A DNA stretch of 64,000 nt from a virus: IMG/VR virus record IMGVR_UViG_3300044641_010298, positions 1 through 64,000 of that record, one strand, 5' to 3'. A program made the position numbers and the translations under genes. Positions within the stretch are counted from its first letter, which is position 1, and the number at the start of each line of letters is the position of its first letter. Of the stretch, positions 21,617-64,000 are shown one piece after another. A model generated the notes under the pieces. That model was not told where the DNA came from. It searched no databases and saw nothing but the letters and a program-made list of their open reading frames with translations.

Positions 21617-22150
21617 CTATTCTTTACAACCCCGAAGTCCTGCAAGCGCTATCACATATGCATCTGCCATATCGTAGGAGATCTCTTTCTTTTCTCCGGT
21701 CTTCTTCTGCGGCCAACTAACCTCGACTCTTTCATCGACCCATTTGAATACTTTTTCCTTGGTTGAGACGCTTTTGTCCTTGTGATTAATCTTCATTTGC
21801 AAGAAATTTCTGGCATTTGTAACATTCAAGGATGTTGCAGTGACTCCAAACGACTTATATGAGATAAGATCACACGCGCCGTTAAATCGGGCAAGAGTAT
21901 TGATGGTATGCGCTGAAGATAGACCTCTTCTAAACGAGCTAAGGTTTTGCTCTATAAAAACTGAATCAGCTTTATATTTTTTTGATATCTCGTCAAGAGA
22001 TTTTTCAACGAGAATGCACTTGTCAATAAACGTCTTTTGATGAGTAAGAACTATCGGCTCAATAAGAAGAATATCTTCGTTTTCGTCAAGGCAGCACACA
22101 CCTGTACAAGAAGTAGAAATATCAAGCCCAATAACACGTCTAGAAGTCAT
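21617..22150 (-). CDS. ruvC: RuvC-like Holliday junction resolvase
   Basis: VIGLDIST, FIEQ and DMADAY acidic residues of the RNase H fold. Confidence 0.85.
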   Translation of the reverse strand: MTSRRVIGLDISTSCTGVCCLDENEDILLIEPIVLTHQKTFIDKCILVEKSLDEISKKYKADSVFIEQNLSSFRRGLSSAHTINTLARFNGACDLISYKSFGVTATSLNVTNARNFLQMKINHKDKSVSTKEKVFKWVDERVEVSWPQKKTGEKKEISYDMADAYVIALAGLRGCKE

Positions 22151-24515
22151 ACCTCAGCCTAAAGACTAATTCATCTCCTTCTCGCTTTTGAACAGATTGT
22201 GCAAGGCGTGCTCGCATGATGACATTTAGGTTTTCATCATGCAAATTTATGCCAGTAATGTATGTGAAATCATCTGCTTGCTCAGATCTGTTCTGTGTGG
22301 GCGGAAAAGACTTATATGTCTGATTTGTTGATGAATTCAAAATACCAGGAGATGCAGGAATTGTAAAGCTTGCCACAGTCTTTCTTACTTCCCCTCTAAA
22401 GCTCATGCTAAATCCATTTTTGCCAAAGAAGGGAACGTGGGGAGATAGGATTGCAACAACTCCATGAGAATAAAATATTGCTCCCACTCTATTCCACTTT
22501 GCTGGGCTTGATAGCGTGTTGGAGCGATAAAGATTTCCCCTGCCGTCATCTCTTAGTGTGATTGACATTCCTCCTGATCCTGAAAGGCTTGAATCAGAAA
22601 TGACAAAGGATCCAGGTGTAATTCTGTTAAGGTAGTATGCAGCAGGAATTGTGAAGAATATTGAACGATTGGATGATAGATCTACGTTTGATGGCCTTGT
22701 AACGTCTTCATTCATGTTCTGAAGAAGCGGTAAATAGACTTTGTAAGGCAAGTCAGTGATTTTATTTGGCGTTCCATCGTAGAGCAGTTCATCGTACTCA
22801 GTCCCTCTGACATATGTTCCCAGAGGCGCAAGCCTTTCAAGAGATATGAAATTTTCATATGTCGAACCATTTATTGAATGAAATCTTGATGAATTGTCGC
22901 TGGACAGCATTTCAAAGCTTGGTTCAAAGGTGCCATTATCACAAGGAAGTATTGAAAAGTTTCTTTTTCTAGCTACTGTCTGATTCATAAGATAATCATC
23001 AAGTGACTGAGTCCTATAGTCTCTGCCAGTTGTTGATAATTCAGAAACTTCTGTTAGACCAAGTGCTCTTGGCTGATTTGATTGTGCAAAATCAATTACA
23101 AAGTTATGCAAGTTTAAATAATTTGCATTGTATCCGAGAGATAAGTGGTAAGACACAGGGCTGTCTGTCTGTAAATAATCAAGCTTTGCTGGTGCGAAGT
23201 AAGATTTCAATGCATTGACTGAGGATGTGAAGAAGACAGGCAGGAAAAAACTTGGTCCAGCTACACCCTCAGAAAGGCTGTAGAGAGAGTTTATTTCTTC
23301 TAGTTGATCATCAGATAAATACCGCTTAAATAGAGAAACGTGGTGGATCTCTGCGTTGAGAGGGTGACTGAATTTGTATCCTGCCGGATCTGATGTGGCG
23401 CCATCTGGGTCTATATCAGTTCCATTGTCAGTCGCTGCTGCAAGATTGAAAAACTTACCAACAGCATCTCCGCAATCATAGTAGTTTCCAATGAATAGTG
23501 CATCATTTGTAGTTGTGCTAGAAATGCTTGCGGAATTGACATTAAACGACTTGCCAATCTGGTCAACTCTTATTGATCCGCTTCCGTAGCTTCTTGTATT
23601 AGATCCCCACCTAATTGTTACTCTGTGCCAGGTGTCTCTCTTTAAAACTTCATCTGATGAAAATATAAGGTCGTTTGGAGATGACAGAGGTAGAAGACCA
23701 GGATTTATGGAAGAAGGTTGCCTGTTTGCACTCTGACTAAGCTGTAAAAGTATTCTAAATGTCTCGGGATTATTATCCGGACCTATCTGTGACCCGCTTA
23801 TGAGTGAAACACAGATAGAAGATGACATGTGAAAAATTGTTCCAGCTCTAAACGATCCTGTCTCTCCGATGGGCGCCTTTGGCTTGATAAAAAAGTCTAA
23901 GGTAAAAGCGCCTGCAGGAGAATATGGTTTTCTTCCCAGCGCATTTGAAAAATTAGGATATATTAGCGCAGATGCTGTCCCAAAATTACTCGATGATATA
24001 AAGTTTAAACAGTGGTAATTGGAATATCCGTAGAGAGAAAAAGGATTCTCGTTAATTTGAGATGGTATCAAAAAATTCTGAACTACTTTTCTCTGAAACG
24101 CTGTCCATTCATTGATCTCTGTTTGAATATCTCCGCCCATGTCTGGAGAATTTCTGGGAATTTGATTTGGGAAGACAAATCTAACAGGATAAGTTGTGAC
24201 GTATTGTCTTCCTTCTACGCTTGAAGCTTCGACCTTTTCTAGATATGAATCAATTGAGCTGGTAATATTGGAATCGCCTAATTTATATCTAAATGATGCT
24301 TCAAATAGATCATCATTGTCAAAGGTTATTGAAGTTGTTTCAGAGAAGACACTACTGCTCCCAGCTTCCGTAATGCTTTTTAATGCGTTTGAAGGCTTCG
24401 TTGCAAGCCTAATGCTACCTGTGAGGCCAGAAGATGAAGAAGAAAATGACTGACTCGGCTGTAACAGGAGCGTAGTTACTTCCGTGAGGTCTGGCCTTAC
24501 AGGAATTACAGACAT
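22140..24515 (-). CDS. Tail/baseplate structural protein with LamG-like region and conserved C-terminal domain
   Basis: FTLDFFIKP...WHRVTIRW...LFIGN (LamG-like). C-terminus YITGINLHDENLNVIMRARLAQSVQK...FRLRYDF is paralogous to the next gene. Confidence 0.65.
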   Translation of the reverse strand: MSVIPVRPDLTEVTTLLLQPSQSFSSSSSGLTGSIRLATKPSNALKSITEAGSSSVFSETTSITFDNDDLFEASFRYKLGDSNITSSIDSYLEKVEASSVEGRQYVTTYPVRFVFPNQIPRNSPDMGGDIQTEINEWTAFQRKVVQNFLIPSQINENPFSLYGYSNYHCLNFISSSNFGTASALIYPNFSNALGRKPYSPAGAFTLDFFIKPKAPIGETGSFRAGTIFHMSSSICVSLISGSQIGPDNNPETFRILLQLSQSANRQPSSINPGLLPLSSPNDLIFSSDEVLKRDTWHRVTIRWGSNTRSYGSGSIRVDQIGKSFNVNSASISSTTTNDALFIGNYYDCGDAVGKFFNLAAATDNGTDIDPDGATSDPAGYKFSHPLNAEIHHVSLFKRYLSDDQLEEINSLYSLSEGVAGPSFFLPVFFTSSVNALKSYFAPAKLDYLQTDSPVSYHLSLGYNANYLNLHNFVIDFAQSNQPRALGLTEVSELSTTGRDYRTQSLDDYLMNQTVARKRNFSILPCDNGTFEPSFEMLSSDNSSRFHSINGSTYENFISLERLAPLGTYVRGTEYDELLYDGTPNKITDLPYKVYLPLLQNMNEDVTRPSNVDLSSNRSIFFTIPAAYYLNRITPGSFVISDSSLSGSGGMSITLRDDGRGNLYRSNTLSSPAKWNRVGAIFYSHGVVAILSPHVPFFGKNGFSMSFRGEVRKTVASFTIPASPGILNSSTNQTYKSFPPTQNRSEQADDFTYITGINLHDENLNVIMRARLAQSVQKREGDELVFRLRYDF

Positions 24516-24521
24516 ATTACC

Positions 24522-25799
24522 TCAGTAGTCGAGTCTGACTCTAAAAGATAGCTTCTTTTGTTCGTTTTTCTCGACGGGACGTGAAAGCTTTGCGACTGCT
24601 AACAAATTGTCGGCTGCGTCATACAACCCGATGGTTGTTATGAAAGTGAACGAGGTTTGATCAATTGCCCCTTCATCTATGACAACTATTCTTCCATCGT
24701 CATCGGTGTATGTAGGATTAGATGAATAGTTGAATTCATCAGCCGCAGCTTCACAGAATACGAGTGTTGAGTTTATCGTGGTAATATTTTGGAACGTGAT
24801 AGAAGTGCTATTTGAATCTGTTGCATTTCCAAATCTGACTGAGGCGACATGATCAACAATGTCATCAATCGAAGCTGACACTACGAAGTCAGGAATGAAG
24901 CTGGCAGATACATTTCCTGCAGTCCAAGTTCTTCCCATGAAAGTAGTGCCTGCTGCAGTTGTAATTCCTCCAATAGTATCTGCTCCAGTTGCCGCGCTAA
25001 TTGTTCCGCTCATGTGCTGGTCAGAAAAGAATACCTTCTCCATGTCGAGAACAACTACGCCGTAGTCGTAGAATATGAGTCCAACATTTTGAGCTGTGTT
25101 TGATGCATTCACTAGGTTTGCTACTGTTCCACCGTACGTGTACTGGGGAACTGCGCCTGCTCCGGCATCTGTGATAATAAAGGATCCTGAAGGGTTTGCC
25201 TTTTGAATGTTGCTACCCGTATAGGTGTTGAAAAGGGTAGCTTCATAGCCGCTCACGCCTCTTGATCCATCCAGAGCTGCTGACGCGTACACTTTCATTG
25301 CAAAGGTTTCTGGCTTAATTGAATCTCTAGAAAATAGCCGCTTAAACGGTAAGAAGAGTGCTGCGTCTATGTAGTCCGATGTTGTGGCATTTGTGAAAGG
25401 TGACGTGAACTGAGAGTTAGCATTTCCAAGTAGCGCCTGTGCAAACTGGTTGTACACTTGCACCTTCTCTCTCATCATTGCCGTATTTGAAGCAAATGTC
25501 AGCTTGCCTGCTGTGTCAACTCCGTAACCGGGAGATCCCGTAACAATGCCACCTGACACGTAGAGGCCTACAGTCATGTCGAACATTTCGTTGGCTGTGG
25601 CAAGAGTGAAGTCCTGATCGAAGACCGTCTGGAATATTGATGAAGTTAGAGAGGCTGCGCCAGATCCTGTAACAAAGACCTCATAGCTCTTTCTCGTATT
25701 TGATCCGCTAACACTCTCTTGAACAATATCAACAAGCTGGTTCAAAAAAGACCTAGCTGTCTTAATATCTTTTGGTCCGATTCCCTTATAAACTGGCAT
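24522..25799 (-). CDS. Tail/baseplate structural protein
   Basis: C-terminal EFNYSSNPTY...FITTIGLYDAADNLLAVAKLSRPVEK...FRVRLDY; VGLIFYDYGVVVL shared with 22140..24515 (VGAIFYSHGVVAI). Confidence 0.7.
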   Translation of the reverse strand: MPVYKGIGPKDIKTARSFLNQLVDIVQESVSGSNTRKSYEVFVTGSGAASLTSSIFQTVFDQDFTLATANEMFDMTVGLYVSGGIVTGSPGYGVDTAGKLTFASNTAMMREKVQVYNQFAQALLGNANSQFTSPFTNATTSDYIDAALFLPFKRLFSRDSIKPETFAMKVYASAALDGSRGVSGYEATLFNTYTGSNIQKANPSGSFIITDAGAGAVPQYTYGGTVANLVNASNTAQNVGLIFYDYGVVVLDMEKVFFSDQHMSGTISAATGADTIGGITTAAGTTFMGRTWTAGNVSASFIPDFVVSASIDDIVDHVASVRFGNATDSNSTSITFQNITTINSTLVFCEAAADEFNYSSNPTYTDDDGRIVVIDEGAIDQTSFTFITTIGLYDAADNLLAVAKLSRPVEKNEQKKLSFRVRLDY

Positions 25800-26564: not shown

Positions 26565-28430
26565 TCAATCTGCTGTATAAAATCGACCAATGCTAGGCGG
26601 AATTGAAGTTGATGAAATTTCATTATCATTTATCAAGATATCAATGTTTTGACTCTGACCGATGTTCAGTTCTGTCATACAAAGCTTGTATGCAACTGAT
26701 CCTGCATTTGACTTGTTGATGAAAGATATTGAATATCCGTCCCTAGTAACATCGGCATATTCAGGATCGAAGTATATTCTCACTCTGCTATGTCCGCTGT
26801 CTTTTATCAGATCACTAAAAAAATCCTCTAGAATGTTTATATTCGGATAGGGTTTGGGAGCGCTCTCTGTAGAAACTCTTGAAACAAGTATTTTTCTTGT
26901 TATTGTGTCAAATCTTACTCTAAACTGTTCAGAATAAGCTGAAGATAGTCCGTGTGCGTCTATTGCACACAAAGCGTAGATGTAGTCGCTATTGATGCTG
27001 TTGAATTCAGCGTCTATATAGTGCTTAATTGGGCCACTTGACAAAATTAGTCTGCTCTCTGGAACATTCTCGCCTGATGTGTAGGGATAAATGCTCTGAT
27101 CAAAATTTATCTCAGCAAGCAAACTAAATGGGTCGTTAATGGTGCTTCTTCTGAAGACTTGAAATCGCTTTATGTCCTTCGTTGTGTTTATTGGAAAATT
27201 CCATCTAATATAGAGTCCGTTCAGAGTCTGCTGAAAAGAAATATTGTTTGGAGGATTTGGAGGAACGTTCTCAGTGCACTGAACTGTTGTAACGACCCCT
27301 GTTGAGGCTACAAGCACTGCAGAAACATCAAATCCCTCAACTGATCCATATTCATTTTTTCTTGCCGTGATCACGTAGGTTTTGTAGACAGTTCTAAGCT
27401 TGTACTTGTATACACCCCCATACCTCACAGCAGCGTCTGAGTAATTCCAGGTTTTTGTAGAAATTCCTTCCTTTATAATCGCTGGGTATGTAAGCGTAGA
27501 TCCATCGATTTGCTCTCCGTACTTTTCCAATATGTAACCAACCACAGTTGTCTGGTTTGTTATCCCAAGAAATGATAAAACAACAGCAGCAAATTCAGCG
27601 TCAGATCCCTCTTCTATTCCTGTCGTGTAAGTTATGTAATCATAAAGTTGACGCCCAGAGACATATTCGCTGCTTATTGGAGTAACCGACACATCGATTT
27701 CGTCTTCTGTGACAGAATATGGATCAGCTGAGACTTCTGTTCTGGTCCTATCTTGCACAGACTGCGCACTCTCAAGAACAGATGCAAATTCATCAGAATA
27801 CGCTGAGGCTTGCCACCTTGTTGCAGTCTTTGCTACGTCTGCAACAAAAAGATCATTTATCGAAACGCCAAGATTCAATGCTTTTATATCATTCTCGTAT
27901 TGTAGGACGACTTCTTCTTCTGTCTGAGATTTTGAAAATCCGTAACCAGCAGCTTGAAATCCTGCAACATATAGAAAGTTTCTCTCTATCTCTGATGTTG
28001 CAGTAGATCCTAGAGATAAACTAGTGTTGTAAAAAGTCTCATCAACTGATGTATCATTAACAATGATACTTGAAATTTTTGTGCTAAACGGCGCATCTTC
28101 AAATATTATACTGTTCGAATTATAGGCGTTGGTAATTGTTCCAGCAGATACAGTTTCAACAGAGTACGAGCCACCACCCTTTCCACTTATGTTTACCTGT
28201 CTTGGATATACAAGACGCTCATAATTCTCAACAATAAAATCATACGCGTCAGATTCGGCATCGAGATCAGACAGAGACGTGGTTTCAGAAGCTCCTTCAT
28301 CTCTTGTATAGTAATTGTATACAAAGTCCGCAGTTACAGATTCATTCTTGCTTAACGTGACAAGATAAAATGGGATGCTTACTGAGCTCGTGGCCTGAAG
28401 TACATCAACATCAACAATATAGCTCGACAT
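26565..28430 (-). CDS. Putative structural protein with fibronectin type III-like domain
   Basis: PPNPPNNI...LYIRWNFP...FQVFRR...YIYALCAIDAHGLSSAYS (FN3 pattern). Confidence 0.65.
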   Translation of the reverse strand: MSSYIVDVDVLQATSSVSIPFYLVTLSKNESVTADFVYNYYTRDEGASETTSLSDLDAESDAYDFIVENYERLVYPRQVNISGKGGGSYSVETVSAGTITNAYNSNSIIFEDAPFSTKISSIIVNDTSVDETFYNTSLSLGSTATSEIERNFLYVAGFQAAGYGFSKSQTEEEVVLQYENDIKALNLGVSINDLFVADVAKTATRWQASAYSDEFASVLESAQSVQDRTRTEVSADPYSVTEDEIDVSVTPISSEYVSGRQLYDYITYTTGIEEGSDAEFAAVVLSFLGITNQTTVVGYILEKYGEQIDGSTLTYPAIIKEGISTKTWNYSDAAVRYGGVYKYKLRTVYKTYVITARKNEYGSVEGFDVSAVLVASTGVVTTVQCTENVPPNPPNNISFQQTLNGLYIRWNFPINTTKDIKRFQVFRRSTINDPFSLLAEINFDQSIYPYTSGENVPESRLILSSGPIKHYIDAEFNSINSDYIYALCAIDAHGLSSAYSEQFRVRFDTITRKILVSRVSTESAPKPYPNINILEDFFSDLIKDSGHSRVRIYFDPEYADVTRDGYSISFINKSNAGSVAYKLCMTELNIGQSQNIDILINDNEISSTSIPPSIGRFYTAD

Positions 28431-31400
28431 CTACGCCTCCACCTTTGTATAAAACTGAGAGACAATATCATTGTACTTGTCTCCGTCTACAACTAGATAT
28501 AAAAGCTTGTCAAATACAAAGGAGCACTCCATTTCCTCGAGCATTCTAGTTGTCATAAAATCCTGATGCATCATAATCATCGCTCGGAGCCTTGAATATA
28601 TTAGCTGATTATCTGTTGTGTCAAATGTGAATCCCGCAGATTGAAGAGCAGCATCTGCAATTGACTCTTCCGGATAAGGATCAGATCTCAGCGGTGATTT
28701 AGTAGTTGCGTATCTTGGATAGAGACCGTAGATGTCTTCAACATACGCTTGAAGCGCTGCCTGGACGACAGCGGCAGGAAAATCAATCGATCCATAGTAA
28801 TTAGTTGCTTCATTTCTTGAAATTATATTGAGAGATCCTCCAGTTTCTGAGATTTCGTATATTGAAATTGAATCATCAGAAGTTGAAGAGACCTCGTTGG
28901 GCAGAGTATAATCATCGACTACGCCCGGAATCTTTGAAGAATAGGGTCCTGCATTTTCTGGCCTATTCGTTTCAGACGAGCTTATATAGCCGAATCCTGA
29001 ATAATCGATTCTATTTTCTGATTCATCTACAGGATCAGCAAAAACTCGAACATTGTAGTAAAAGCTAATATCTTCTTTTGCAAGTCTAAGAAGCTCAAGA
29101 TGTCCATATGGCAAACCAATTACACATATTGATAAATTCTCCTTTTTAAGGATCAGGTCTTTGAAAGCTGCTTTTACTATTGACCTGTAGTGTCTTGATC
29201 TAGTTGCAATTGATGAAATTAACGTCCCAGGAACAAAGTTAAGATATCTGCTTGTGCGATAAAGAGCTTCAACAGCTGACTCAAGCGTTAGATACCTTCC
29301 TACTATTTGTGCTGTCTTCTCCTCGCCATAGATCTCCTTGATTTTATTGTGAAGAGATATGACAGATGAGATATAATTGCTTTGAGCTGAAAGTACTGTC
29401 TTTTGATAGGCAATGAGAGACCTAAAATCTTGATACATCTGGAGTGCACCGGTTACAGGTTTTCTCAGCTCTTGAAGAAGAGAATCTATGTTTGCTCTTT
29501 GCTCGTTGGTTGGTTCACTTCCTGTAATTTCTACAAATTTAGAAAAAGAGACTTCATCAGCGCTAGTTGCCGTGAAAATAGACTTCAAACAATCAATCGC
29601 AAGAGCAATATCATGCTGGTGCCACTCAACGTAGCAATCGTAATCAACTCTGAAATATCCAGAAATTTTTATTTTTGAGAGAACTCTGAGAAACATGATA
29701 AAAGAAGCAAATCTTATTTGTTCAACAATTTTTTGATTTGATGATATCGTAGTATAGTTTGCTGTTAATTCATTTGTAATGTTTCTAAACGTATCAAACG
29801 ATGACCCTTCAATACAAAGGTTTTTGAAAAAGTCTGAAAATGAAGAATAGGTTGGTACAAATTCTAGTTTCTTCTTTGAAGATATCCCTTCTAAATGAAA
29901 TCCCTCTGTTGAAAATTCATACCTCCCTAAATCAGACATATTTTTAAATTCAGCATAAGCAGGTGAAAATACAGATTTACCAGATCTCACAGAGAAAGGA
30001 TAGGCATCTTCATTATGAATAATAGAATACAGCTTTGCAGCCGCAAATTCAGAGTGTGTAGCAATAGAAAATAGTGCCACTCTAGACGCAGAATAGGTCT
30101 CATACGTCGACAGTGAATCAATCTCATTGCTCATCAATACTGATTCTTCAAAAAAGCTGATGTAGTGATCAAAAAATGTTTGAAAAATTGTCATTGCGCA
30201 CTGATTTGTAAAGAAGTTTTTATTATCAGATACAAATCCATCCAGATTTGAGATAATTTGGTCTATTTGAGTCTTTAAGGCTTCTAATTCGGGTATACTC
30301 AAAGAAACAATCGAAGATACAGGATCTGACTGTTCAATCTCTGATGTCTGCAGTGTTTCATCAAAAAGAAAAATCTTCTTTCCAGATGATGTTTCTGCAA
30401 CATACCTAATTGAATCACTGGAAGTGTTAGAAATTGACACAATTTCTGCTGATCCCGGGCTTATCGATGCAGGAATTCCAGAGTTAAGAAGTGATCCTAT
30501 TTCTGATTCTGCTATTAGAGCGGAGAGAACTGGAACAACCTGCTTGTAGAATGAGTAGTTATCCACCTCAGAATCAAGACCAATAATCGGAAGATGTGAT
30601 ACCTTTCCATCTGATGAATAGAGATGTGTATTGACTTCATATTCAGCAACGGCGTCTACGTAAGAATCCTGTACTCCGTACATTCTTCCTTCAAATCTTG
30701 CCAACTGTCCTGCATAATAGACGCCGTTGGAAGAAAGTCTAGAAACAGCAGCAGCAGCAGTTGTATTAAAATCAATTGCTTGAAAGTTTTTACTTACTGC
30801 ATCACCAACTAGATCAAGAGTCACCTTGGCAAATTCTATCCCTTGACAATTTTCAATATTGTCAGCTGTCAAGCTGGTTACAGGAGCTACTTTTGCGTAC
30901 TCTATATCTTGATAGGGGCTTTGTATGACCTGGTCTAGAGAATCTGGAGTATAGAGCCTTCCTTCTAAAATCTGAGCCAGAACAGCCTTCATTAGTTGAT
31001 ACTGTCTTGCCGTTTTTGATTGTGCTGGGATGACTGTTGTGTCTCCCGTATCTCCTAAAAGCTTTTCACTCAAGCTTAGTATAATGTCTTTACCGCTATC
31101 ATATTTTGTAACATCGTCGTCAATGTATTGAACTGACCTATTGTTTGTGGTTGAAGAAGTAGTTGTTTCAGCTGTAGGCAGTGTTGCTGCAAGAACAATT
31201 TCACCACGTGAGACATTTGATTCTGATGTCGTTGTTGCAACAGCTGAGTCAACTTTTTGCTGCACATCCTGGCTTGGTGTGGTTATGCTTGTCGTAGAAA
31301 TTACAGCCTGCTTCAGGCCGGCAATCTGCGGCAGAGAAGTCGCGAGAACTGTATACTTCGATGTATTTTCGTCCCGTATTTGCCCAAGCTGAGCTTGGGC

Positions 31401-35190: not shown

Positions 35191-35197
35191 TAACTAT
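35191..35197 (-). promoter_or_regulatory. Candidate late promoter ATAGTTA
   Basis: Identical to the motifs at 3925 and 46007. Confidence 0.55.
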
Positions 35198-52920: not shown

Positions 52921-52949
52921 ATCTTACTTCGCTTAGGAGTCGTATTCAA
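52921..52949 (-). promoter_or_regulatory. Sigma70-type promoter upstream of the Cas4-like nuclease
   Basis: TTGAAT(52949-52944)-17 nt-TAAGAT(52926-52921), GAGG SD downstream; same -35 as the promoter at 20340. Confidence 0.6.
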
Positions 52950-54858: not shown

Positions 54859-54860
54859 GT

Positions 54861-55787
54861 TCAAACTATAACACCACGAACGTTCGGGTATCTTACTTGA
54901 AAGTACTTAATAGTCTCTCTTAGACCCTCGCGAAGAGGTGTATATTCACCCTTCCAGCCAAGAGACCTAAGCCTCTCGTTGGACGAAGGCTTTTCGTACT
55001 GTCCGTCAGGCTTACTCTTATCAAAGTTACAACCTCCCTCGTATCCAATCTCCTCAGCAATCATACGAGCAAGACTTTCAATCGAGACCTGCTCTGGATT
55101 TCCAATGTTGACAGGCTCTGCTTTGTCATAGTTCTCTGCAAGCCAGAGAATAATTCTTGCTGCATCACGTGCAAAAGTGAACTCACGTAACGGCTTGCCA
55201 CTTCCCCAGACATCTACATGGTCGTGTCCGTAGACCTTTGCCTCGTGAAATTTTCTGATGAGAGACGGTATGACATGACCGCTGTTTAGATCGTAGTTGT
55301 CGTTAAGACCGTAGAGATTGTTAGGAATGACTGAGATAAAGTTACATCCGAACTGTTGACGGTATGCCCTGCTCTGTACCTCTAGCATCCTCTTTGCGTA
55401 TGCGTAACCAAAGTTTGAAGGGTGTGGTGGACCGAGATGAAGCTGGTCCTCTGTGAGCGGGTATTTCACGTATGCAGCATCTGGATAGATGCAAGTTGAG
55501 AGGATAGAGACAAGCTTTAGTCCGTCATGCTTGCAGGCTTCAAGAATGTTCATGCTCATACGAACGTTATCATCAAAGAAATCTGCGACATAGTCAGTGT
55601 TTGCTTTCACACCTCCTACTCTTGCAGCGCAATGAATAACTGTGTCAAACTTACCATTTGGACAAAGTCTGAGTTTAAAATTGCCCGTGAGATCACAATT
55701 TTTCGAATTAAAACCAATTGATCCTGGTGAAAGAGATAGAACCTCACTTCCAAGTAGACCAGTTGAACCTGTAATCAGTCTCATCAT
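54861..55787 (-). CDS. fcl: GDP-L-fucose synthase
   Basis: [44 protein letters not shown]. Confidence 0.93.
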
Positions 55788-56422
55788 GATTCTCTATTGA
55801 CTTCCCAGACAGTCAAAGATTCTCTCCACCAGTAGGAAAAGTTGGAATATTTTACAGAGGCCTGGCCTAATGCATTGCTAGCAGGAACATTTAGAGTAAA
55901 TCCTTTCCCTACCATAAGATCAACAAAAGAATCAAAAGGCAAGGGATTTAAATGCTGGTGGTGTGGATCGCTTTCTGGATTTTCAGATCCACCATATCGA
56001 CTCCACGTCATTATTAGATACTTACCCGTTAGAGATCTTAGATTTTTTAGTAGAGTCTCTGTGTATTCGGGTTCGATATGTTCGCCAACTTCAGTGCATA
56101 TCACAATATCGAACTTCTTTTCTTCTAAGCCTTCCGGCAAAGGATCTCTTATATCAATAAAGTGAATATTATCAACAATTGATTTGCTAGCGTACTTTTT
56201 ATGATACTCAAAATATTCTATTCCTTCAACACTAACATTTTTGAATCCTGATTTAATGAAATCAATAAGATGACCATCTGCACAACCTACATCAATAGCA
56301 CTTGAGACACTACTAAAATTAAATACTTCTTTTAAGACTTGAAAAAATGATTCATATGGTGCAGGAGAGCGACCTGTCTCCTCGCCCTCTGGATATCTTT
56401 TCTCAATGTTAATTTTTTCCAT
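55784..56422 (-). CDS. Class I SAM-dependent methyltransferase
   Basis: IDVGCADG, FDIVICTEVGEHI; ATG at 56422 overlaps the upstream TAA. Confidence 0.85.
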   Translation of the reverse strand: MEKINIEKRYPEGEETGRSPAPYESFFQVLKEVFNFSSVSSAIDVGCADGHLIDFIKSGFKNVSVEGIEYFEYHKKYASKSIVDNIHFIDIRDPLPEGLEEKKFDIVICTEVGEHIEPEYTETLLKNLRSLTGKYLIMTWSRYGGSENPESDPHHQHLNPLPFDSFVDLMVGKGFTLNVPASNALGQASVKYSNFSYWWRESLTVWEVNRES

Positions 56423-57297
56423 TAAATCCACCTTTCTTTGGACACGACTGGGACATACTGCAAAAAATCAATCTGGCTATAGTCAAAAGACTTTAGTCTA
56501 AAATTGGTCCATGATCCCATATACGGTCTTTCAAAATCAACTATTCCAGCAAGAGCATCAATACCAGATCCTACATCATAGAATATAGCATTTTTGTATT
56601 TTTTAAGTCTGTGAAGAAGTCCAGATTTAACATGCCCAATTCCGACTAAAAATATGCGAGTCTCTTCTGATGAGTTCTCAAGCTGAGTTGCAACGCTTCG
56701 TTCAAGAGATTCAAGATCATCACACGCAAATTTCTGCGGGATCTTAATATAGTCATTAAAAGTCTCAAGACCAAGAAACTCTTGATATTCTACATTTTCC
56801 ATTAAACCCTGGATTAAGTCAATCTTTTTATCAGCTCCAATTATACCAATCTTTCCAGAAAAATTCTTTGTTAGCCATCTGCTAGAAACAAGACCGTATC
56901 CAAATTCAGCAGGAATATTGATTGGACGGTCAGGGTACAGATCTCTAAAAAGGTGAGTGTTATAAAGCTCAACAGCAATCAGATCGTTTTGCACAACACC
57001 ATTAATAAAATCATCGTGATTAAGCATCTGACTGTAATCTTTTCCAATAGATCTCTTTCCAGGAGTTGCACTTCCATATGGAATCTTTTTAAGAAAGTAA
57101 TAGTCGCCATCTCCAAACTTATAAATTGTGCAGCTATTTCCCGCAGAAGTCGCTTCAATTAACCACTTCTTGAATCCTTCTAATCCCTCCTGGAAGTTTG
57201 GACAAGCATCCGGATTTTGAAAAACTGGGTGTTGATCTAGATTTAGCGATCCTTCTATTTCATATTGTGGCAAAAAACCCGGATGCTTATCAAGCAA
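56422..57297 (-). CDS. GT-D fold (DUF1792-like) putative glycosyltransferase
   Basis: KFGDGD, LVGIG and DVGSGIDALAG resemble the RFGDGE and IDIGS motifs of GT-D proteins; TTG start after AGGAG. Confidence 0.55.
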   Translation of the reverse strand: MLDKHPGFLPQYEIEGSLNLDQHPVFQNPDACPNFQEGLEGFKKWLIEATSAGNSCTIYKFGDGDYYFLKKIPYGSATPGKRSIGKDYSQMLNHDDFINGVVQNDLIAVELYNTHLFRDLYPDRPINIPAEFGYGLVSSRWLTKNFSGKIGIIGADKKIDLIQGLMENVEYQEFLGLETFNDYIKIPQKFACDDLESLERSVATQLENSSEETRIFLVGIGHVKSGLLHRLKKYKNAIFYDVGSGIDALAGIVDFERPYMGSWTNFRLKSFDYSQIDFLQYVPVVSKERWI

Positions 57298-57345
57298 GAT
57301 TATCTCCTAGTTAGAAAACAATAATTTGTCTTTTCTAGATTTATA

Positions 57346-58440
57346 CTAGGGCCTGTATTGATTTACGACATCAGAAATATACCTTAGCTGATTCTCTTCT
57401 AGCCACCATCCAACTGGAATGTTGATCATTCTGCTGCAGAAATAGTCGCAGCCTGGCAGACTATCTGAAACATAGTCCGAAAAGACAGAATATCTGTCAT
57501 TTCTCACGTGAACAACATCTGATGCGATTCCCTTTTCAAGGAGATACTTTGAAAAATGAGAAGGAGAATCAACAACAAGCGTATAGATCCAGTATGCAGA
57601 TTCAGCATCCGGAGTCTGTCTTAGCTTTTTAACATAGACATTTTCTATTTCACGATCGTAGAACTTTCCATTTTTTATGTGCTTCTCAACAATTCCGTCA
57701 ATTTTTTCCATCTGAAGTAATCCAATTGAAGCATTGACATTATTCATGTGGAATTTGTATCCAGATCTCGTAATGTCCTGGGACCACTTCTGGCCTGTGA
57801 ACTTTCTATCAAGACCAAACCACTTTATCTTTCTGAGTGTTTCAATTTCTTCTTTTCCAAGATTTGTAGAAATTGCGCCCCCATCGACTGTGGTCAGGTG
57901 CTTGATTGCTTGAAAAGAGAAGCAAACATAATCAGAGTGACTTCCGATCTTTTGACCCTTGTATGAGGCACCTAGTGCATGTGCTGCATCTTCAATAACC
58001 CTGATTCCGTGATTCTTGGCAATTCTATTAATTTCATCAATTTCAAATGGTAATCCGCTCCAGTGAACACCTACGATTGCCTTTGTTTTCTTGGTGATCT
58101 TCTTTTCAACAGAAGCTGGATCAATATTTCCTGTTGTGGGATCAATATCTGCCCAGACAATTTTCGCCCTAGCATTGTGAATTGGTTCATTTGTTGCCAT
58201 GCATGTCATAGGTGTCGTAATAACTTCGTCTCCCGGACCGACTCCCGACATATCATAGGCAAGTGTGAGTGCGCTGGTGCAGCTATTGACAATGGCAACA
58301 TCTCTATTCTGGATGTATTCACCAAAACTTCTCTCAAATTGATCTGACTTTTCACCCTCGGTAATAAATCCTGAGTCGAAGACTTCTTGGATTGCTTGAC
58401 CAATGCCTACCGGTGTGTGTATCTTGAAGAGGGGAATCAC
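57346..58440 (-). CDS. DegT/DnrJ/EryC1/StrS PLP-dependent sugar aminotransferase
   Basis: NSCTSAL, GDEVIT, EDAAHALG, SFQAIKHLTTVDGG (PLP Lys). Confidence 0.93.
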   Translation of the reverse strand: MIPLFKIHTPVGIGQAIQEVFDSGFITEGEKSDQFERSFGEYIQNRDVAIVNSCTSALTLAYDMSGVGPGDEVITTPMTCMATNEPIHNARAKIVWADIDPTTGNIDPASVEKKITKKTKAIVGVHWSGLPFEIDEINRIAKNHGIRVIEDAAHALGASYKGQKIGSHSDYVCFSFQAIKHLTTVDGGAISTNLGKEEIETLRKIKWFGLDRKFTGQKWSQDITRSGYKFHMNNVNASIGLLQMEKIDGIVEKHIKNGKFYDREIENVYVKKLRQTPDAESAYWIYTLVVDSPSHFSKYLLEKGIASDVVHVRNDRYSVFSDYVSDSLPGCDYFCSRMINIPVGWWLEENQLRYISDVVNQYRP

Positions 58441-59390
58441 TTGGTTTTTCTCCTGTATTCGCTGATTATATTCTCAATTTCTTTGTCAAGGAATCTTGTT
58501 TGCTTCCATCCTAGATTCAAAACCTTGCTATTGTCGAGAGCGTATCTGACATCAGCACCCGATCTATCCATTACGTTTTTTGTAACATCTTTGTAGTCAA
58601 CTTTCATATTTTTACAAATTATCCTTACGACTTCTTCTACAGAATATTCTTCGTCAGAAGAAATGTGATAAGACTCATTTCTATTTCCTTCTTCGATTAT
58701 TCTAAAAATTGCGTCAACATTATCATCAACGTGAATCCAGTTTCTAATATGGGTGCCGCTTCCGTGAATTGGTATCTTGTTTCCATCAAGGATGCTCGTT
58801 ATAGATCTAGGAATTAATTTTTCTGAGTTTTGTCTTGGGCCGTAGTTGTTAGTAGTTCTTGTGATAATGTATGGAATTTTATAGGTTCTTCCCCACGCAG
58901 AAACAAGCTGTTCAGCGGCTGACTTTGTTGCAGAGTAGGGATTACTTGGTGTGTGCTTGTCAGACTCCCCAAAGAAACCATCTTCAATGTCTCCAAATAC
59001 CTCGTCTGTGCTGATTTGTACGAAAAGCGGGCACTCATATTCCCAGGCGGACATTACGCTTTTTATGTTCTTGTTCTTTATAATTTCAAGCAAATTATAG
59101 ACACCTAGCACGTTGGTTCTAACAAAATTGAAGCTGTCTTCTATTGAGTTATCAACATGTGATTCAGCAGCAAAATTTATTATTGCGTGACAGTGGGGAA
59201 GATCTTTGATTTGTGAAATATCCTCTTTTATGTGAACATAATTTCCCTTAAAATTCAGATCCTTATTAGCTGCATAAGTCTCGCAATCAATGTTGATGAT
59301 TGAATATCCCTTTTCAAGGGCTTTCTCGACAAAATGAGAGCCTATGAATCCTAAGCCTCCAGTAACTACAAAAGTCTTACTTCTGGACAT
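58437..59390 (-). CDS. rfbB: dTDP-glucose 4,6-dehydratase
   Basis: GGLGFIG, FAAESHVDNS, STDEVFG, PYSATKS, NNYGPRQ, RNWIHVDD; likely start MSRSKT at 59390. Confidence 0.92.
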   Translation of the reverse strand: MSRSKTFVVTGGLGFIGSHFVEKALEKGYSIINIDCETYAANKDLNFKGNYVHIKEDISQIKDLPHCHAIINFAAESHVDNSIEDSFNFVRTNVLGVYNLLEIIKNKNIKSVMSAWEYECPLFVQISTDEVFGDIEDGFFGESDKHTPSNPYSATKSAAEQLVSAWGRTYKIPYIITRTTNNYGPRQNSEKLIPRSITSILDGNKIPIHGSGTHIRNWIHVDDNVDAIFRIIEEGNRNESYHISSDEEYSVEEVVRIICKNMKVDYKDVTKNVMDRSGADVRYALDNSKVLNLGWKQTRFLDKEIENIISEYRRKTK

Positions 59391-59808
59391 TTTCAAAAAA
59401 GATCTCCCAATTTTCAAATTTCTCTGTGTCCTGATTTTCAGGATGCCATGCAATATTAGGCAGGTTTATTACAGTTGATATCTCTGATTCACTATTATTC
59501 ACAATTCTTATAGGCATTCCTGGCGGAATAAAGACTACTCGAATTTGATTTTCATCAACTCTTAGATTGACCTTTTTTACTTGACCATCCTCAAAATACT
59601 CAACAAAACTTTCTCCACCAATTGCAGTCAGATACCCAGATCTTTTCCTGTGAAGAATTGGCCCCTTTTTCATAAGGGGACCAATCGTTGTTGCGTAGAC
59701 CATTGCAGGTTGATATCCTGGAACAAGAGAATCCCAATCCCTGTATATTGGAATCATGAGACCCTCAGCCGTCTTGTTGATGAATATTTCCCTATAAGAG
59801 AGAGTCAT
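59377..59808 (-). CDS. RmlC/FdtA-like cupin (sugar epimerase/isomerase-like)
   Basis: KKGPILH...VFIPPG...VIN cupin pattern next to rfbB. Confidence 0.6.
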   Translation of the reverse strand: MTLSYREIFINKTAEGLMIPIYRDWDSLVPGYQPAMVYATTIGPLMKKGPILHRKRSGYLTAIGGESFVEYFEDGQVKKVNLRVDENQIRVVFIPPGMPIRIVNNSESEISTVINLPNIAWHPENQDTEKFENWEIFFENVQK

Positions 59809-60434
59809 TTATTTTCCTTTTTAATCTTATCAATAAAATCCGAGCTTATACAATCAGAAAAAATTGAAATTCCAGGAAATTTTTCATTTATTACAGTGTA
59901 ATTAAGCTTATCCCTAGTTGAGCAAATTGAAGCTCTTTTGTATTTTGTCATCCACTCAACATTGTCTCTCTCAGGAGTTCCGCCTTCAAAAATTACTGGG
60001 ATCCCACTTTTTATTTTTTCCTTGAATATTTCATGAATTTGATAAATCTTTTCTCCATCATTTGAAACATCAATGTGACAAAAATCAAAATTTAGATTGG
60101 ACCAATCTCCCTCAAATATGTTTCCCTTCTCAAGAGTCACAAAATCTGAAACGCCAAGATCATCTATCCTTTGCTGAACATCTGATCTTTTGCTGCTCTT
60201 ATAAGAGTAATCTTCCCACAAGTCAAAGCATGTAAGTGATCCATTTCCGAGTGTCTTCAAAGCAAGGCCCATGCAAATTGCAGAATATCCAAAAAGAGTC
60301 CCAAACTCAACAATTTTTAAGGGAGAAATTTCTAAAACTGTCTCATACAAAAAAATACCAAGACCATTCTTGGAATAAGAAGACTCAATTTCTAGCCTAT
60401 TTATAATTTCTCTTGCCTCATTCTCTCTTATCAT
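59805..60434 (-). CDS. Class I SAM-dependent O-methyltransferase
   Basis: IVEFGTLFGYS, FDLW, FDFCHID. Confidence 0.8.
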   Translation of the reverse strand: MIRENEAREIINRLEIESSYSKNGLGIFLYETVLEISPLKIVEFGTLFGYSAICMGLALKTLGNGSLTCFDLWEDYSYKSSKRSDVQQRIDDLGVSDFVTLEKGNIFEGDWSNLNFDFCHIDVSNDGEKIYQIHEIFKEKIKSGIPVIFEGGTPERDNVEWMTKYKRASICSTRDKLNYTVINEKFPGISIFSDCISSDFIDKIKKENK

Positions 60435-60455
60435 TAATTCCTCACGTTCTGGAAT

Positions 60456-61112
60456 CTAGTAATCTCTTGGATTTTCACCATGCGGATACCAAGTCAATCC
60501 CATCTCATCTCTAGTGTCAAATTGAATCTTCTCTTTTTGAAAAAAATTAAAAATTTGATCTTCAATTGAGATTGAATTCTTGACCATTTCAATTAAATTA
60601 ATTGATCTACAGTAGCTTAAAAGATCCTTAGAGCTTATACAAAAAAGACCTGTATTAAAATGTCGACCGTGCTCTCTGTTAATTGTGAATAGATTTCTTG
60701 GATTTGACAAAAAAGAATCAATAAAATTAAAGTTTCTTGTCTTCTGCCTCGGTTCGTGATGAATTATCCAGTCATATTCTTTTATTTCATTTTCAAGACA
60801 AAGCCACGTAAAAATCAGTCCAGCACCGTTATTTAATCCCCCAAATTGATTGTTTTTAGTTAAAAAAACTCTAGAATTTGAGGGAAATCTATCAACAATT
60901 CTTTGATCAATCTCGGAAAAACTAGAAGATGTATTATCAGATATGATGATGTCCACATTCTTGAATCTATCATGTCCGCTCAAGAATGTATCTAGCCCCG
61001 CCATATACTGGTTTACTCTATCCTCTCCTGTAAATCTTCCAGAACCATATCCGGTGCGAGGAGGCGGATTAAATGCACAGCTCAGGATGATTAAGCACCT
61101 GCTTTTTTCCAT
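60456..61112 (-). CDS. Hypothetical protein, possible GT-A-like glycan enzyme
   Basis: DRVNQY, IIISDNT, NNGAG; located inside the glycan island. Confidence 0.5.
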   Translation of the reverse strand: MEKSRCLIILSCAFNPPPRTGYGSGRFTGEDRVNQYMAGLDTFLSGHDRFKNVDIIISDNTSSSFSEIDQRIVDRFPSNSRVFLTKNNQFGGLNNGAGLIFTWLCLENEIKEYDWIIHHEPRQKTRNFNFIDSFLSNPRNLFTINREHGRHFNTGLFCISSKDLLSYCRSINLIEMVKNSISIEDQIFNFFQKEKIQFDTRDEMGLTWYPHGENPRDY

Positions 61113-61167
61113 GTGAAATCTCCAGTATTTGTCTCGTTTTATGTTTTCTGAAGTTTGCTAACTCGTC

Positions 61168-61869
61168 TTAGTTTCTCTGGTCTTCCACAAGGTTCTTTCT
61201 CATGAAGTAGATGTTTGTGTGCTCATAATCATCATCTTTGTTTTCTACTTTCAAAAAGTACAAAGAATTTTCTCGAATGAGTGCACGATAAGCAATAAAT
61301 CCTGATGTTTCAAGAAGCTGAAGCATATCAGAAATCTTTATTCCTCGCTCTTTCCAGCATCCTCCGTACTCGAATTGTCCGGCTAGTATTTTTTCGTGAT
61401 TAGCATATCTTCCAATGCTAGAAAAAGTCTCTAGCTCAAATCCCTCTGTATCAATCTTGAGATACCATGAGCTAGAAGGGGATTGATCAAATTCTGATTC
61501 ATCCAGTATGCTCTCAAGCCTTCTGAGGCTGACTTCGATCTTCTCTCTTTGATTCAGTATCTCTATCTCGTTAAATGCCTGTCTGTCATAGAGAGCTGAA
61601 CACTTGGGAAAATTAGGCGTCACAAACATATCAGACTTTTTTTCTTCTGTGGAGATTGCGCATTGAAATACTTTTGCGCTTGGGAATCTATTTCTAATGA
61701 TCTCAGCCTTTTCTGGTATCGGCTCGATCATGATTGCATTTTTTCTAGATCCCATCCCTAGAACAAAACTAACAAAGTCACCCTCGTGACTTCCTACGTC
61801 AATTATTCCAAAATCTTTTGGAAAAACTCGATCAATTATCGATTTTGCAATGATAAAATCTTCTTCCAC
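61168..61869 (-). CDS. FkbM-family methyltransferase
   Basis: IIDVGSHEG, IEP, LKIDTEGFE, QFEYG. Confidence 0.88.
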   Translation of the reverse strand: MEEDFIIAKSIIDRVFPKDFGIIDVGSHEGDFVSFVLGMGSRKNAIMIEPIPEKAEIIRNRFPSAKVFQCAISTEEKKSDMFVTPNFPKCSALYDRQAFNEIEILNQREKIEVSLRRLESILDESEFDQSPSSSWYLKIDTEGFELETFSSIGRYANHEKILAGQFEYGGCWKERGIKISDMLQLLETSGFIAYRALIRENSLYFLKVENKDDDYEHTNIYFMRKNLVEDQRN

Positions 61870-61882
61870 AGCAGCTCCCGTC

Positions 61883-62725
61883 TCAAATATACCCGAGAAT
61901 AATGTTCTCGTATTTCTTTGCAGCCTGCTCGAGAGTAAAACTCTCCTCTATGAATTCTCTTGGTAAGAAACTTGAAATTTTTTGAGAAAATTCATCAAAT
62001 CTATCAATATTAAAGGTGTCAAAGATCTCACCGCAGCGCTGGTCAAAATATGGAACGCTAGTTGAATCAGCAGGGTTATCCTTGTAGTGAAAATAGTCAA
62101 ACTTTGATTTATTCACAACATAGCAGGGCACACCCATTGAGAGTATCTGCATGTAAGCAATTCCTTGTGACTCAGTACCCGTCAAAAGAATGCAAGATCT
62201 AGCGCTTTCACAGGCAAGATATAGATCTTTCTCTTCGTATTTTCCATACTCTATGATCCTGTGAGGGACGGACCTGCTTCTGAGGTGATTGATGACAAAA
62301 TCAAGCTCTTCTCTCTGCCGACTCTTGAAATAGACTAAGACCTCTTTCTTTTGTTGATTTTTTGGGGACCAAAGATCAGTATCAATGCCTGCGGGCCACA
62401 CATCAATTGTGGATGATGACATCTCTGCGTATTTTTGGTACTTTTTCTTAACCCATTCGCTTGGGACAACATAGTGATCAAATTTTTTACAAATTTCTCC
62501 CCACTCACTTGGAAAGATGAATAAATTTGGTCCCATTATAGCATTTCTAGGAAGAGATCCCAGAGCTTGAGTGGGCTGTAAACATCCCTGGATAACATCG
62601 GATTGTATCCTGCTATTTCCATAGACAGACCATCCAATTCCAGCTAGGCCTCTTGCAAGACTTTCAACAACTCTTCCAGGTCCTCTTTGAGTCGAAGAAA
62701 AATGCAAGTTTATTTCTTTTTTCAA
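61883..62725 (-). CDS. GT-B-like glycosyltransferase
   Basis: GPN, VVPSEWV, WPAGIDT, TESQGIAYMQILSMGVP. Confidence 0.7.
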   Translation of the reverse strand: MKKEINLHFSSTQRGPGRVVESLARGLAGIGWSVYGNSRIQSDVIQGCLQPTQALGSLPRNAIMGPNLFIFPSEWGEICKKFDHYVVPSEWVKKKYQKYAEMSSSTIDVWPAGIDTDLWSPKNQQKKEVLVYFKSRQREELDFVINHLRSRSVPHRIIEYGKYEEKDLYLACESARSCILLTGTESQGIAYMQILSMGVPCYVVNKSKFDYFHYKDNPADSTSVPYFDQRCGEIFDTFNIDRFDEFSQKISSFLPREFIEESFTLEQAAKKYENIILGYI

Positions 62726-63525
62726 CTTCTTTCCAGAAGGCTTATAGAAGAAGGATAATGAGCAGAAGTATTGTTTATCTCAGAAAGCGACAAGAAGTCA
62801 ATCTTCTTTCCCTGATCCCAGATCTTTTTCAAATTTTCTGGTAATTCCTCGCCCGACTTGTTCTTGTACTCATCTTGGACACGATTGATGGGCAAGTTCA
62901 CTATGCAGGAAGATGCCATACAGACACATCCAAAGTTTTGAGACATCTGCTTGGCAATTTGCAACCTGTCCTCGAACTGATTTGGATTATTGAATTCAAT
63001 CATCTGAATCCATGATAGCATCTGATCTTTTCTAAAGACGTGTCCATCAACAGATATTGGGTAACTCCAGTCTCCAGATCCAGCGCGCCAGTCCCAAGCA
63101 AAAAATCCTCCCTGGATCATTCCGTCTGGGATTGGCTGCTTCTCTCCTGTTGGATAGCAATAGTTTAGATGCATACCCATTCTCATTGAGAATGTTAGAA
63201 TGCTGGGATTTGCATCCAAGATGCCGCACATTGTCAATATTGAGCATCTCTTCTTGAAGATGATATCATCAACAAAGAATGTGCAAAATCTGCTTGCCTC
63301 AGAAAAGCAAGACATGATATCTTGCTTAAAATTTCCCTGATTTACGAACCTAACATGTGGAAATTTTTTTCTTATCTCTTCGAGACCATCAACATAGAGA
63401 TCATCGTATTTGAAAATAACAGATATTGAGGAGTGATCCTTGATGTCAGAATAAAAATGAAGAGATTCTAACAATGCATAGAGCTGGAGGGGTCTATTCC
63501 TAGAAAATATTACAGTATCGATCAT
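62722..63525 (-). CDS. GT-A-like glycosyltransferase
   Basis: VIFSRNRPLQL, FFVDD (DxD-like), YPISVDGH. Confidence 0.65.
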   Translation of the reverse strand: MIDTVIFSRNRPLQLYALLESLHFYSDIKDHSSISVIFKYDDLYVDGLEEIRKKFPHVRFVNQGNFKQDIMSCFSEASRFCTFFVDDIIFKKRCSILTMCGILDANPSILTFSMRMGMHLNYCYPTGEKQPIPDGMIQGGFFAWDWRAGSGDWSYPISVDGHVFRKDQMLSWIQMIEFNNPNQFEDRLQIAKQMSQNFGCVCMASSCIVNLPINRVQDEYKNKSGEELPENLKKIWDQGKKIDFLSLSEINNTSAHYPSSISLLERS

Positions 63526-64000
63526 TTTACCACGCCCGTATAAAGATACAGGGATCTATAGAAGCTTGACAATGATAATGCAATTTTTGGATCATAGGCT
63601 GGACTGTGTTCGAACCTATAGGTTACAAGTCGCTCAGGAAGTATTTCAATTTTTGCAAACTTGATCGCTCTTAGCCAGAAATGATAATCCTCGCAGAAAG
63701 GAAAGCAATCTTCGTAGACCCCAATGTGATCAATCAGGGACCGCTTAAAGATCATGCTGGAATTTGCAAGGCAATTTCTTCCAGAAAGCATGCTGCTGAT
63801 TATTTCATTGTGTGTCAGAGGATGGAATATCTGATTTTCGTAGAGCGTTCCATCTTTATGTGTTGTCAATATCTGTGTACCAACAACATCTGCTCCATTT
63901 TCATCGATGCACTTGATCTGCTTTTCAATCTTTCCATCGTGCCAGATATCATCAGCATCCAAGAGGGCAACTAGATCACCCTTTGCAATAAAAAGACCCT
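63522..64000 (-). CDS. Glycosyltransferase family 2, 5'-partial
   Basis: Frame is open to the window edge: AKGDLVALLDADDIW...K, CEDYHFWLR. Confidence 0.88.
   Translation of the reverse strand, partial: GLFIAKGDLVALLDADDIWHDGKIEKQIKCIDENGADVVGTQILTTHKDGTLYENQIFHPLTHNEIISSMLSGRNCLANSSMIFKRSLIDHIGVYEDCFPFCEDYHFWLRAIKFAKIEILPERLVTYRFEHSPAYDPKIALSLSSFYRSLYLYTGVVK

Follow-up and report, generated by a model that had tools for sequence, protein, structure and literature searches.

The sequence analysed here, the first 64 kb (hereafter the window) of a 104-kb IMG/VR contig (IMGVR_UViG_3300044641_010298), carries two sets of genes from a T4-like phage: a group of baseplate and tail proteins with dispersed [ST]-[GA]-S tripeptides, and a locus encoding a pair of GT4-type glycosyltransferases (GTs), GT413 and GT387, with an adjoining island of sugar genes (Table 1). 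Every large open reading frame (ORF) of the window lies on the minus strand, and the genes present include those for a gp23-type capsid protein, a gp20-type portal, a gp17-type terminase and a prohead protease, together with a gp6-like wedge protein and a weak gp25-like protein. The closest relatives of the capsid protein, in the uncultured phage LR756508, Flavobacterium phage immuto, Microcystis phage Mel-JY01 and Rhodothermus phage RM378, place the contig in the 'far-T4' lineage, and a CheckV completeness of 32% means that the source genome is probably jumbo-sized. An earlier note on this DNA had proposed that the tripeptide is the acceptor of a phage-encoded virion O-glycosylation system. 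Our analysis revealed that the tripeptide is the core of a longer, conserved and clade-specific motif, for which structure alone may well be the selective reason.

Table 1. Window features bearing on the motif and on the glycosyltransferase locus. Sites are [ST][GA]S tripeptides; expected counts and z values are from composition-preserving shuffles.
Position	Strand	Feature	Family or remark	Sites	Expected	z
6247..8154	-	gp23-like major capsid protein	PF07068; ~220-residue insertion relative to gp23			
22140..24515	-	791-residue distal tail protein		7	2.6	2.9
24522..25799	-	425-residue distal tail/baseplate protein		7	1.5	4.7
34221..35174	-	317-residue protein	ATAGTTA late-like element before start; not significant alone	3	1.0	2.1
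35194..37992	-	932-residue beta-rich baseplate/tail protein		14	3.2	6.2
38702..42157	-	1151-residue baseplate/tail protein	LamG_3 (ConA-like) domain	14	3.9	5.4
42154..43668	-	504-residue Ig/FN3/macroglobulin-like beta-sandwich chain	directly after gp6	6	1.5	3.8
43677..45527	-	gp6-like baseplate wedge protein	phrog_6/219; inner baseplate, module anchor	0	1.5	
49670..50833	-	GT387, second GT4	PF00534; always paired with GT413			
50830..52071	-	GT413, virus-specific GT4	PF00534; clade core gene			
52094..52906	-	PD-(D/E)XK nuclease	PF12705; syntenic partner upstream of the GT4 pair			
52946..64000	-	Accessory soluble sugar island	truncated nucleoside diphosphate (NDP)-sugar dehydrogenase, GMD, GDP-fucose-synthase-like reductase, three methyltransferases, PseC/ArnB-type aminotransferase, RmlB-like dehydratase, weak GT4 N-domain protein, GT2 (to 64223)			

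Comparison of the [ST][GA]S count of each protein with composition-preserving shuffles placed five of the six proteins singled out in the earlier note above expectation (z 2.9-6.2), and reproduced exactly its by-eye counts of about 14, 14, 7, 7, 6 and 3. In the same test the window's remaining 50 ORFs showed no enrichment. The neighbours 26565..28430, 32254..34221 and gp6, said to hold about 0-2 sites, hold 0, 2 and 0, and the Ser-rich structural protein 28431..32252 has 5 sites against 4.7 expected; with equally Ser-rich neighbours not enriched, the contention that the excess is not simply composition stands. Among the 8,000 exact tripeptides, SGS ranks first in the six proteins (22 against 4.9 expected, p 1e-8) and TGS second (14 against 2.8, p 1.5e-6), SAS is weaker (10 against 3.8), TAS is not significant, and AGS, NGS, DGS and TGT show no enrichment. 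The 51 sites fall in 41 different 9-mers and draw on both Ser codon families, a codon diversity that points to selection on the protein and led us to reject an in-frame DNA word. That Ser/Gly-rich composition, low-complexity runs, post-hoc choice or such a word produced the enrichment has in its favour that the proteins are Ser-rich (10-14%) and that the motif was picked by eye; shuffles that keep composition and still leave z values up to 6.2, the top two tripeptide ranks, the flat Ser-rich neighbours, the varied codons and recurrence in about 80 homologues make this account extremely improbable.

Their position after gp6 identifies the motif-rich proteins as peripheral baseplate and tail proteins. 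Pfam and PHROGs searches (ten tail proteins in the latter) assigned the motif-rich tail proteins to no family, except for one LamG_3 domain (PF13385) at residues 170-318 of 38702..42157, and neither tblastn of the 932-residue protein nor blastn of 35194-42157 found a match in the phage collection. Paralogy of the six was considered and rejected, as BLASTP detected only the last 42 residues in common between the adjacent 22140..24515 and 24522..25799 (43% identity), and profile and hidden Markov model (HMM) comparisons added one marginal 45-residue module. The common 42-residue C-terminus may be an attachment or chaperone-binding module. Beyond the window, the fibre-like ORFs 66137..68515 and 68576..70033, which flank the sugar island on the side away from the baseplate, are also enriched and, with 15 and 8 [ST]GS, are among the most motif-rich of the contig; the C-terminus of the 485-residue fibre-like protein beyond the window matches cyanophage virion structural proteins.

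In full, the motif extends beyond the tripeptide and reads hydrophobic-[ST]-[GA]-S-hydrophobic. Flanks were tallied in nine clade genomes, namely the present contig, five related contigs, immuto, RM378 and Mel-JY01, whose enriched ORFs hold 444 unique sites. Hydrophobic residues occupy 56% of -1, 47% of -2, 43% of -3 and 52% of +1 positions against a background of 33%, which bears out the earlier remark that the motif often follows a hydrophobic residue, and charged residues are depleted at -1 (9%). The individual residues V, I, F and L at -1 reach 8-12 times expectation, and F, L and I at +1 reach 9-11 times, whereas [ST]GS sites of the control genomes T4, S-SSM4, XacN1, RsoM2USA and LR756511 have no hydrophobic flanks. 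Within the core, position 1 is enriched for S (4.8-fold) and T (4.5-fold) and at most 1.4-fold for any other residue (N 0.7, D 1.3), position 2 for G (4.7-fold) and A (2.5-fold), and position 3 for S (4.7-fold) and T (2.0-fold). Spacing between sites is partly periodic, with peaks at 6 (z 6.2), 15, 18 (z 5.1) and 21 residues, and in the fibres the motif is embedded in plain tandem repeats.

Homologues of these proteins retain both the sites and their density. In an alignment of the 932-residue family (the query and 31 homologues; mean column identity 53%), all 31 homologues are enriched (z 2.7-6.7); site 579 is kept in 32/32 sequences, 516 in 30/32, 671 in 29/32, and 448 and 926 in 28/32, and exchanges at these sites stay within the residue class, with S and T interchanging freely. 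The 504-residue family has 925 matches, and among the 52 sequences aligned, sites 134, 265 and 302 are kept in 41-46, with a conservation of 0.73 for the third-position Ser against 0.46 for Ser in general. Many sites are conserved to the same degree as core residues. A further 7 columns of this alignment carry the motif in 14-32 homologues and lack it in the query, and the mean z of the family is 5.4; there is therefore turnover of sites at a maintained density. Across the two families the excess recurs in about 80 homologues. Homologues of 38702..42157 in the genomes G001-G005 and Mel-JY01 are likewise enriched, and 24522..25799 has partial homologues in immuto, RM378 and Mel-JY01. A segment of ~45 residues with three sites in register is common to the BLAST-unrelated 504- and 932-residue families, a marginal relationship (hhalign; reciprocal HMM matches E 0.0017-0.11) that profile and HMM searches did not extend to the remaining motif-rich proteins.

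At the level of whole genomes, the [ST]GS observed/expected ratio is 2.0-2.6 in the nine clade genomes, each with 4-12 significantly enriched ORFs, against 0.67 in T4, 1.32 in S-SSM4, 1.08 in XacN1, 1.53 in RsoM2USA and 1.62 in LR756511, with 0-1 enriched ORFs; when a hydrophobic residue is required on both sides, the ratio is 3.5-9.3 in the clade and 0.8-2.5 in the controls. Control sites are scattered singletons that do not cluster, including those behind the intermediate ratio of LR756511. In immuto the enrichment falls on baseplate proteins encoded after the wedge, on two tail spikes and, within its first ~275 residues, on the sheath. The GT4 pair occurs in all nine genomes with the motif excess and in none of the five controls, and such co-variation is what the earlier note suggested testing; all positives belong to one clade, however, and the association is confounded as a single evolutionary event. 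No independent lineage with the GT pair was found when three distant GT representatives served as queries, each yielding either no match or a single contig from the same broad clade, and tblastn of the immuto SGSF/GDGS fibre repeat outside the clade gave only self-matches, a search probably limited by low-complexity masking.

Structural models place the motif within beta architecture. The AlphaFold2 model of the 504-residue protein (mean predicted local distance difference test score, pLDDT, 82.7) is a chain of beta-sandwich domains whose fold matches are beta-sandwich arrays; in it, S302 ends a strand, G303-S304 form a two-residue hairpin turn and I305 starts the next strand, TGS265 lies at the opening of a strand, SGS283 at the close of one and SGS310 in mid-strand. 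In the model of the 932-residue protein (pLDDT 61), TGS448 lies within a strand and TGS579 just before one; this protein has no fold match in the PDB, and no solved homologue of the motif-rich fibres was found. Where the earlier note expected exposed turns, the models show a hairpin turn at SGS302, strand edges at 265 and 283, and mid-strand positions at 310 and 448. The motif is certainly a building element of the beta-sheet modules of these proteins. A hydrophobic residue followed by SGS is natural in beta-sandwiches, as in the antibody V-kappa framework strand RFSGSGSG, and two-residue type II' beta-hairpin turns have Gly at L1 and Ser, Thr or Asn at L2. The G-S tight turn between two strands modelled for SGS302 resembles both; unlike the motif, generic turn statistics admit Asn/Asp and need no Ser/Thr before the Gly, and they leave its clade specificity unexplained.

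The motif, its residue specificity, conservation, clade distribution and secondary-structure context are observations; as the selective reason behind them, structure alone is the safest reading, and one we favour tentatively. On this view the five residues hydrophobic-[ST]-[GA]-S-hydrophobic form an idiom, with the tripeptide at its centre, that marks strand-turn-strand junctions, be they two-residue hairpin turns, bulges, or the beginning or end of a strand. The modules concerned, beta-sandwich or fibrous, would be those that build the virion proteins facing outward in one large far-T4 clade, among them peripheral baseplate proteins, fibres and spikes, and the sheath over its first ~275 residues. 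Rather than being read by an enzyme, the idiom would be kept by selection on folding and assembly and would have spread by descent and duplication of modules, with the GT4 pair and its accessory island forming a separate clade trait. The hydrophobic flanks, the hairpin, strand-edge and mid-strand positions, the periodic spacing and the fibre repeats mean that a structural role explains the motif at least as well as a sequon does, and the flanks, modelled strand-edge sites, periodicity, repeats and high positional conservation together suggest that structure may suffice. Several observations weigh against this reading. The physics of beta-sheets is universal, yet the five control genomes show no clustering; generic beta-turns would admit Asn/Asp at positions 1 and 3, where only hydroxyl residues are enriched; the motif occurs in mixed secondary-structure contexts and in proteins without detectable homology; sites turn over at constant density; and the shared-module signal accounts for no more than about three sites in each of the two proteins concerned. 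These points would find a simpler account in a reader enzyme specific to the clade.

Such a reader need not be a glycosyltransferase. A Ser/Thr kinase, another modifying enzyme, or a chaperone gripping hydrophobic-small-hydrophobic tail segments would share with a sequon the clade specificity, hydroxyl specificity and turnover, and immuto does encode GroEL/ES; the basis for such a factor is the motif statistics, and we consider it improbable.

The glycosyltransferases themselves have the marks of a core function. GT413 and GT387 score 48.8 and 35.8 bits against Pfam Glycos_transf_1 (cut-off 26.4). Of 50,697 phage records, GT413 matches only 7, every one from far-T4 phages, and neither T4 nor S-SSM4 has it; the large Atlas clusters nearest to it are 87-100% viral, and it is 70-82% identical in G001-G005, where the identity of tail proteins is 30-60%. 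Among the best 150 representatives of its family, about 16 (for example P0172, P0176 and P0189) run to 800-911 residues because of an intein near residue 288, with Intein_splicing/Hint and LAGLIDADG homing endonuclease domains, inserted just before the catalytic EGFG..E motif; fusions of GT413 to GT387, considered for these 800-900-residue homologues, were rejected. An intein in a phage glycosyltransferase is unusual and, judged from these sequences, points to a highly conserved, indispensable site. Its virus specificity, its conservation and its invasion by an intein therefore indicate a core function for GT413. GT387 has orthologues in immuto and Mel-JY01, where the pair is again adjacent and the order of nuclease and GT genes is the same, and five long relatives all have the pair ~12 kb from the homologue of the 932-residue protein. 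Among 80 IMG/VR loci examined, of at least 560 that carry the GT, both GTs occur in 80/80, gp6 within 10 kb in 76/80, the nuclease in 66/80 and GMD in 42/80. The placement of the GTs next to the baseplate, as the earlier note had it, thus describes the present subgroup, in which the island lies between fibre and baseplate genes, and does not extend to immuto, Mel-JY01 or RM378, in which the conserved GT genes lie among replication genes.

A rival that stays in contention, though less likely than structure alone, is that the motif is the sequon of a cytoplasmic virion O-glycosylation, in which GT413 and GT387 would add the first sugar to a Ser/Thr at hydrophobic-[ST]-[GA]-S-hydrophobic surface turns of tail, baseplate and fibre proteins and the variable island, with its genes for GDP-fucose, an amino-dideoxy sugar, methyltransferases and GT2s, would extend and vary the glycan. 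This would accommodate the presence of the pair in every motif-excess genome and its absence from the controls, the demand for hydroxyl residues at positions 1 and 3 with free S/T exchange, the turnover of sites at constant density, and the conservation and intein of a virus-specific GT413. The clade spans hosts of three phyla, which favours an acceptor intrinsic to the phage; the island is fully soluble; in the present subgroup it lies between fibre and baseplate genes; and in Mel-JY01 a fusion of a GT4-like protein to an FkbM methyltransferase adjoins a motif-rich structural protein. On the other side stand the single clade, the hydrophobic flanks and periodicity that fit structure, the location of the core GT genes among replication genes in the three cultured phages, the lack of an ATAGTTA late-promoter-like element upstream of the GTs, and a likeness to solved protein O-GTs that stays at noise level. 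The proposal of an acceptor motif and a GT-built coat is therefore supported in part, by the shuffles, by the lower density in genomes lacking the pair and by the makeup of the island described below, and weakened by the single clade and by a structural account that serves as well. The part of Mel-JY01 (L180) in question, positions 635-3052 and 4750-8430, also has a long ORF on the plus strand with proline-free collagen-like (G-T/S-S)n repeats, which overlaps coding sequence annotated on the other strand and lies near the fusion, 1227 residues long, and the motif-rich structural protein.

The makeup of the island bears on two further accounts of the enzymes. Instead of the at least six glycosyltransferases claimed earlier we find four firm ones, two GT4 and two GT2-domain proteins above Pfam cut-offs, plus one sub-threshold GT4 N-domain; one GT2-domain protein runs past the window end and the other lies beyond it. 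The three methyltransferases are confirmed, and the pathways for GDP-fucose, a UDP-uronic acid and an amino-deoxysugar were mostly rightly recognised: GMD scores above its equivalog cut-off and is accompanied by Fcl-like, RmlB-like and PseC/ArnB-like proteins. The nucleotide-sugar dehydrogenase at 52946-53887 (313 residues) aligns with positions 1-295 of a model of 413 positions and has no C-terminal UDP-binding domain; this shortened protein may be inactive or partner-dependent. A methylated deoxysugar coat can only be inferred, because the sugar-nucleotide genes are accessory. O-antigen clusters typically contain variable genes of this kind, and in PHROGs the GTs are classed as moron/AMG (auxiliary metabolic gene), as would suit a module that remodels the host surface (lipopolysaccharide, O-antigen or capsule) and has nothing to do with the virion; this concerns the island only, and the motif would then be structural. 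However, the ORFs of 49670-66106 include no priming transferase, flippase, polymerase or ligase in Pfam and no transmembrane segment (a Polysacc_synt_C 'flippase' match was spurious), and the GT4 pair is specific to viruses and conserved in phages whose hosts belong to three phyla, which makes host-surface remodelling unlikely. Glycosylation of DNA, as in the glucosylation of T4, is weakened as an explanation by the absence of PF00303, the ThyA-family hydroxymethylase, from the complete RM378 and Mel-JY01 genomes and from the present contig; immuto alone has it.

Known systems offer partial parallels. GtfA and GtfB are the O-GlcNAc transferase pair of Gram-positive serine-rich-repeat adhesins, two adjacent cytoplasmic genes of GT-B/GT4 type that act together on Ser-rich acceptor repeats of S-[AVT]-S type, and the present pair is adjacent at all 80 loci. 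GtfA (chains 4pqg and 5e9t) is nevertheless at noise level for GT387 (E 0.16-0.23) and absent from the matches of GT413, and the candidate acceptor here is no long tandem serine-rich repeat. The chlorovirus PBCV-1 has its capsid glycosylated at atypical sequons by soluble GTs that it encodes, a cytoplasmic, host-independent machinery whose GT4 protein B736L is a weak PDB match of GT413 (E 7.6e-5, generic GT4 C-domain only); there, unlike here, the glycans are N-linked and sit on the major capsid protein of a eukaryotic virus. Cyanomyoviruses, T4-like aquatic phages, carry islands of lipopolysaccharide and sugar genes for which host-surface remodelling has been proposed, and the variable cluster of NDP-sugar enzymes, GTs and methyltransferases is similar; the present one differs in its conserved core, the virus-specific GT4 pair, and in its position between fibre and baseplate genes, and S-SSM4 has neither the pair nor the motif excess. 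A further parallel is mycobacteriophage virion glycosylation, in which glycans were shown chemically on C-terminal extensions of siphovirus capsid and tail-tube subunits (Freeman et al. 2023, as cited in PMC12619734). As described there, phage GTs encoded near structural genes are proposed or shown to decorate virion proteins, a gene position that the present subgroup has and that the core GT genes of immuto, Mel-JY01 and RM378 do not. The candidate sites reported here differ in being internal pentapeptides, dispersed over baseplate, fibre and sheath proteins of a T4-like myovirus.

The contig probably belongs to the same lineage as the moraphages or to a sister lineage, to judge from shared features, its CheckV completeness and its best major capsid protein match, LR756508. 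Moraphages, or ERM-type aquatic jumbo phages, have a T4-like structural core related to that of a Rhodothermus phage, predicted Bacteroidota hosts and genomes of 200-307 kb, and their core genome contains four GT orthogroups whose function was left open (PMC12619734). The same paper gives no motif or sequon, and notes that a tape measure protein could not be identified in its genomes. In the window, the 377-residue product of 46041-47174, directly upstream of the gp25-like gene, has tape-measure-like PHROG matches and three predicted transmembrane segments. The capsid protein matches in two pieces by tblastn (57% covered), and all four of its motif sites (159, 180, 312, 339), a number not significant by itself, lie inside its insertion; its gene has a GC content of 0.55-0.62 throughout, against ~0.40 for the contig, and an opposite GC skew. 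A single 1027-residue ORF at 17222-20305 fuses gp47 and gp46, joining an Mre11-like metallophosphoesterase to an SbcC/Rad50-like ATPase, and contig L261 has a 959-residue counterpart ahead of its GT. The heptamer ATAGTTA lies 12-28 nt upstream of the start codons of 45531-46001, 34221-35174 and 2557-3903, and also inside the gene upstream of 38702..42157; it was not found before the GT and nuclease genes. On its sequence and placement it is a candidate late promoter core.

If the motif is structural only, it provides a sharp, clade-diagnostic signature of beta-sandwich and fibre modules that, LamG_3 apart, have no Pfam or PHROGs family. The cultured clade members immuto, RM378 and Mel-JY01 make the question directly testable. 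Were the sequon reading true, no earlier protein-glycosylation sequon would have been defined in a tailed phage, the GT4 pair would be a soluble, sequon-directed O-glycosyltransferase system of use in glyco-engineering, and a very abundant aquatic far-T4/jumbo clade would carry a coat on its baseplate, fibres and sheath, with the island diversifying that coat. Abundant aquatic phages, as the at least 560 IMG/VR loci with the GT suggest, would then dress their host-recognition apparatus in glycans of their own at predictable sites, which would bear on host range, protease resistance, grazing or antibody-like recognition, and the annotation of tail proteins.

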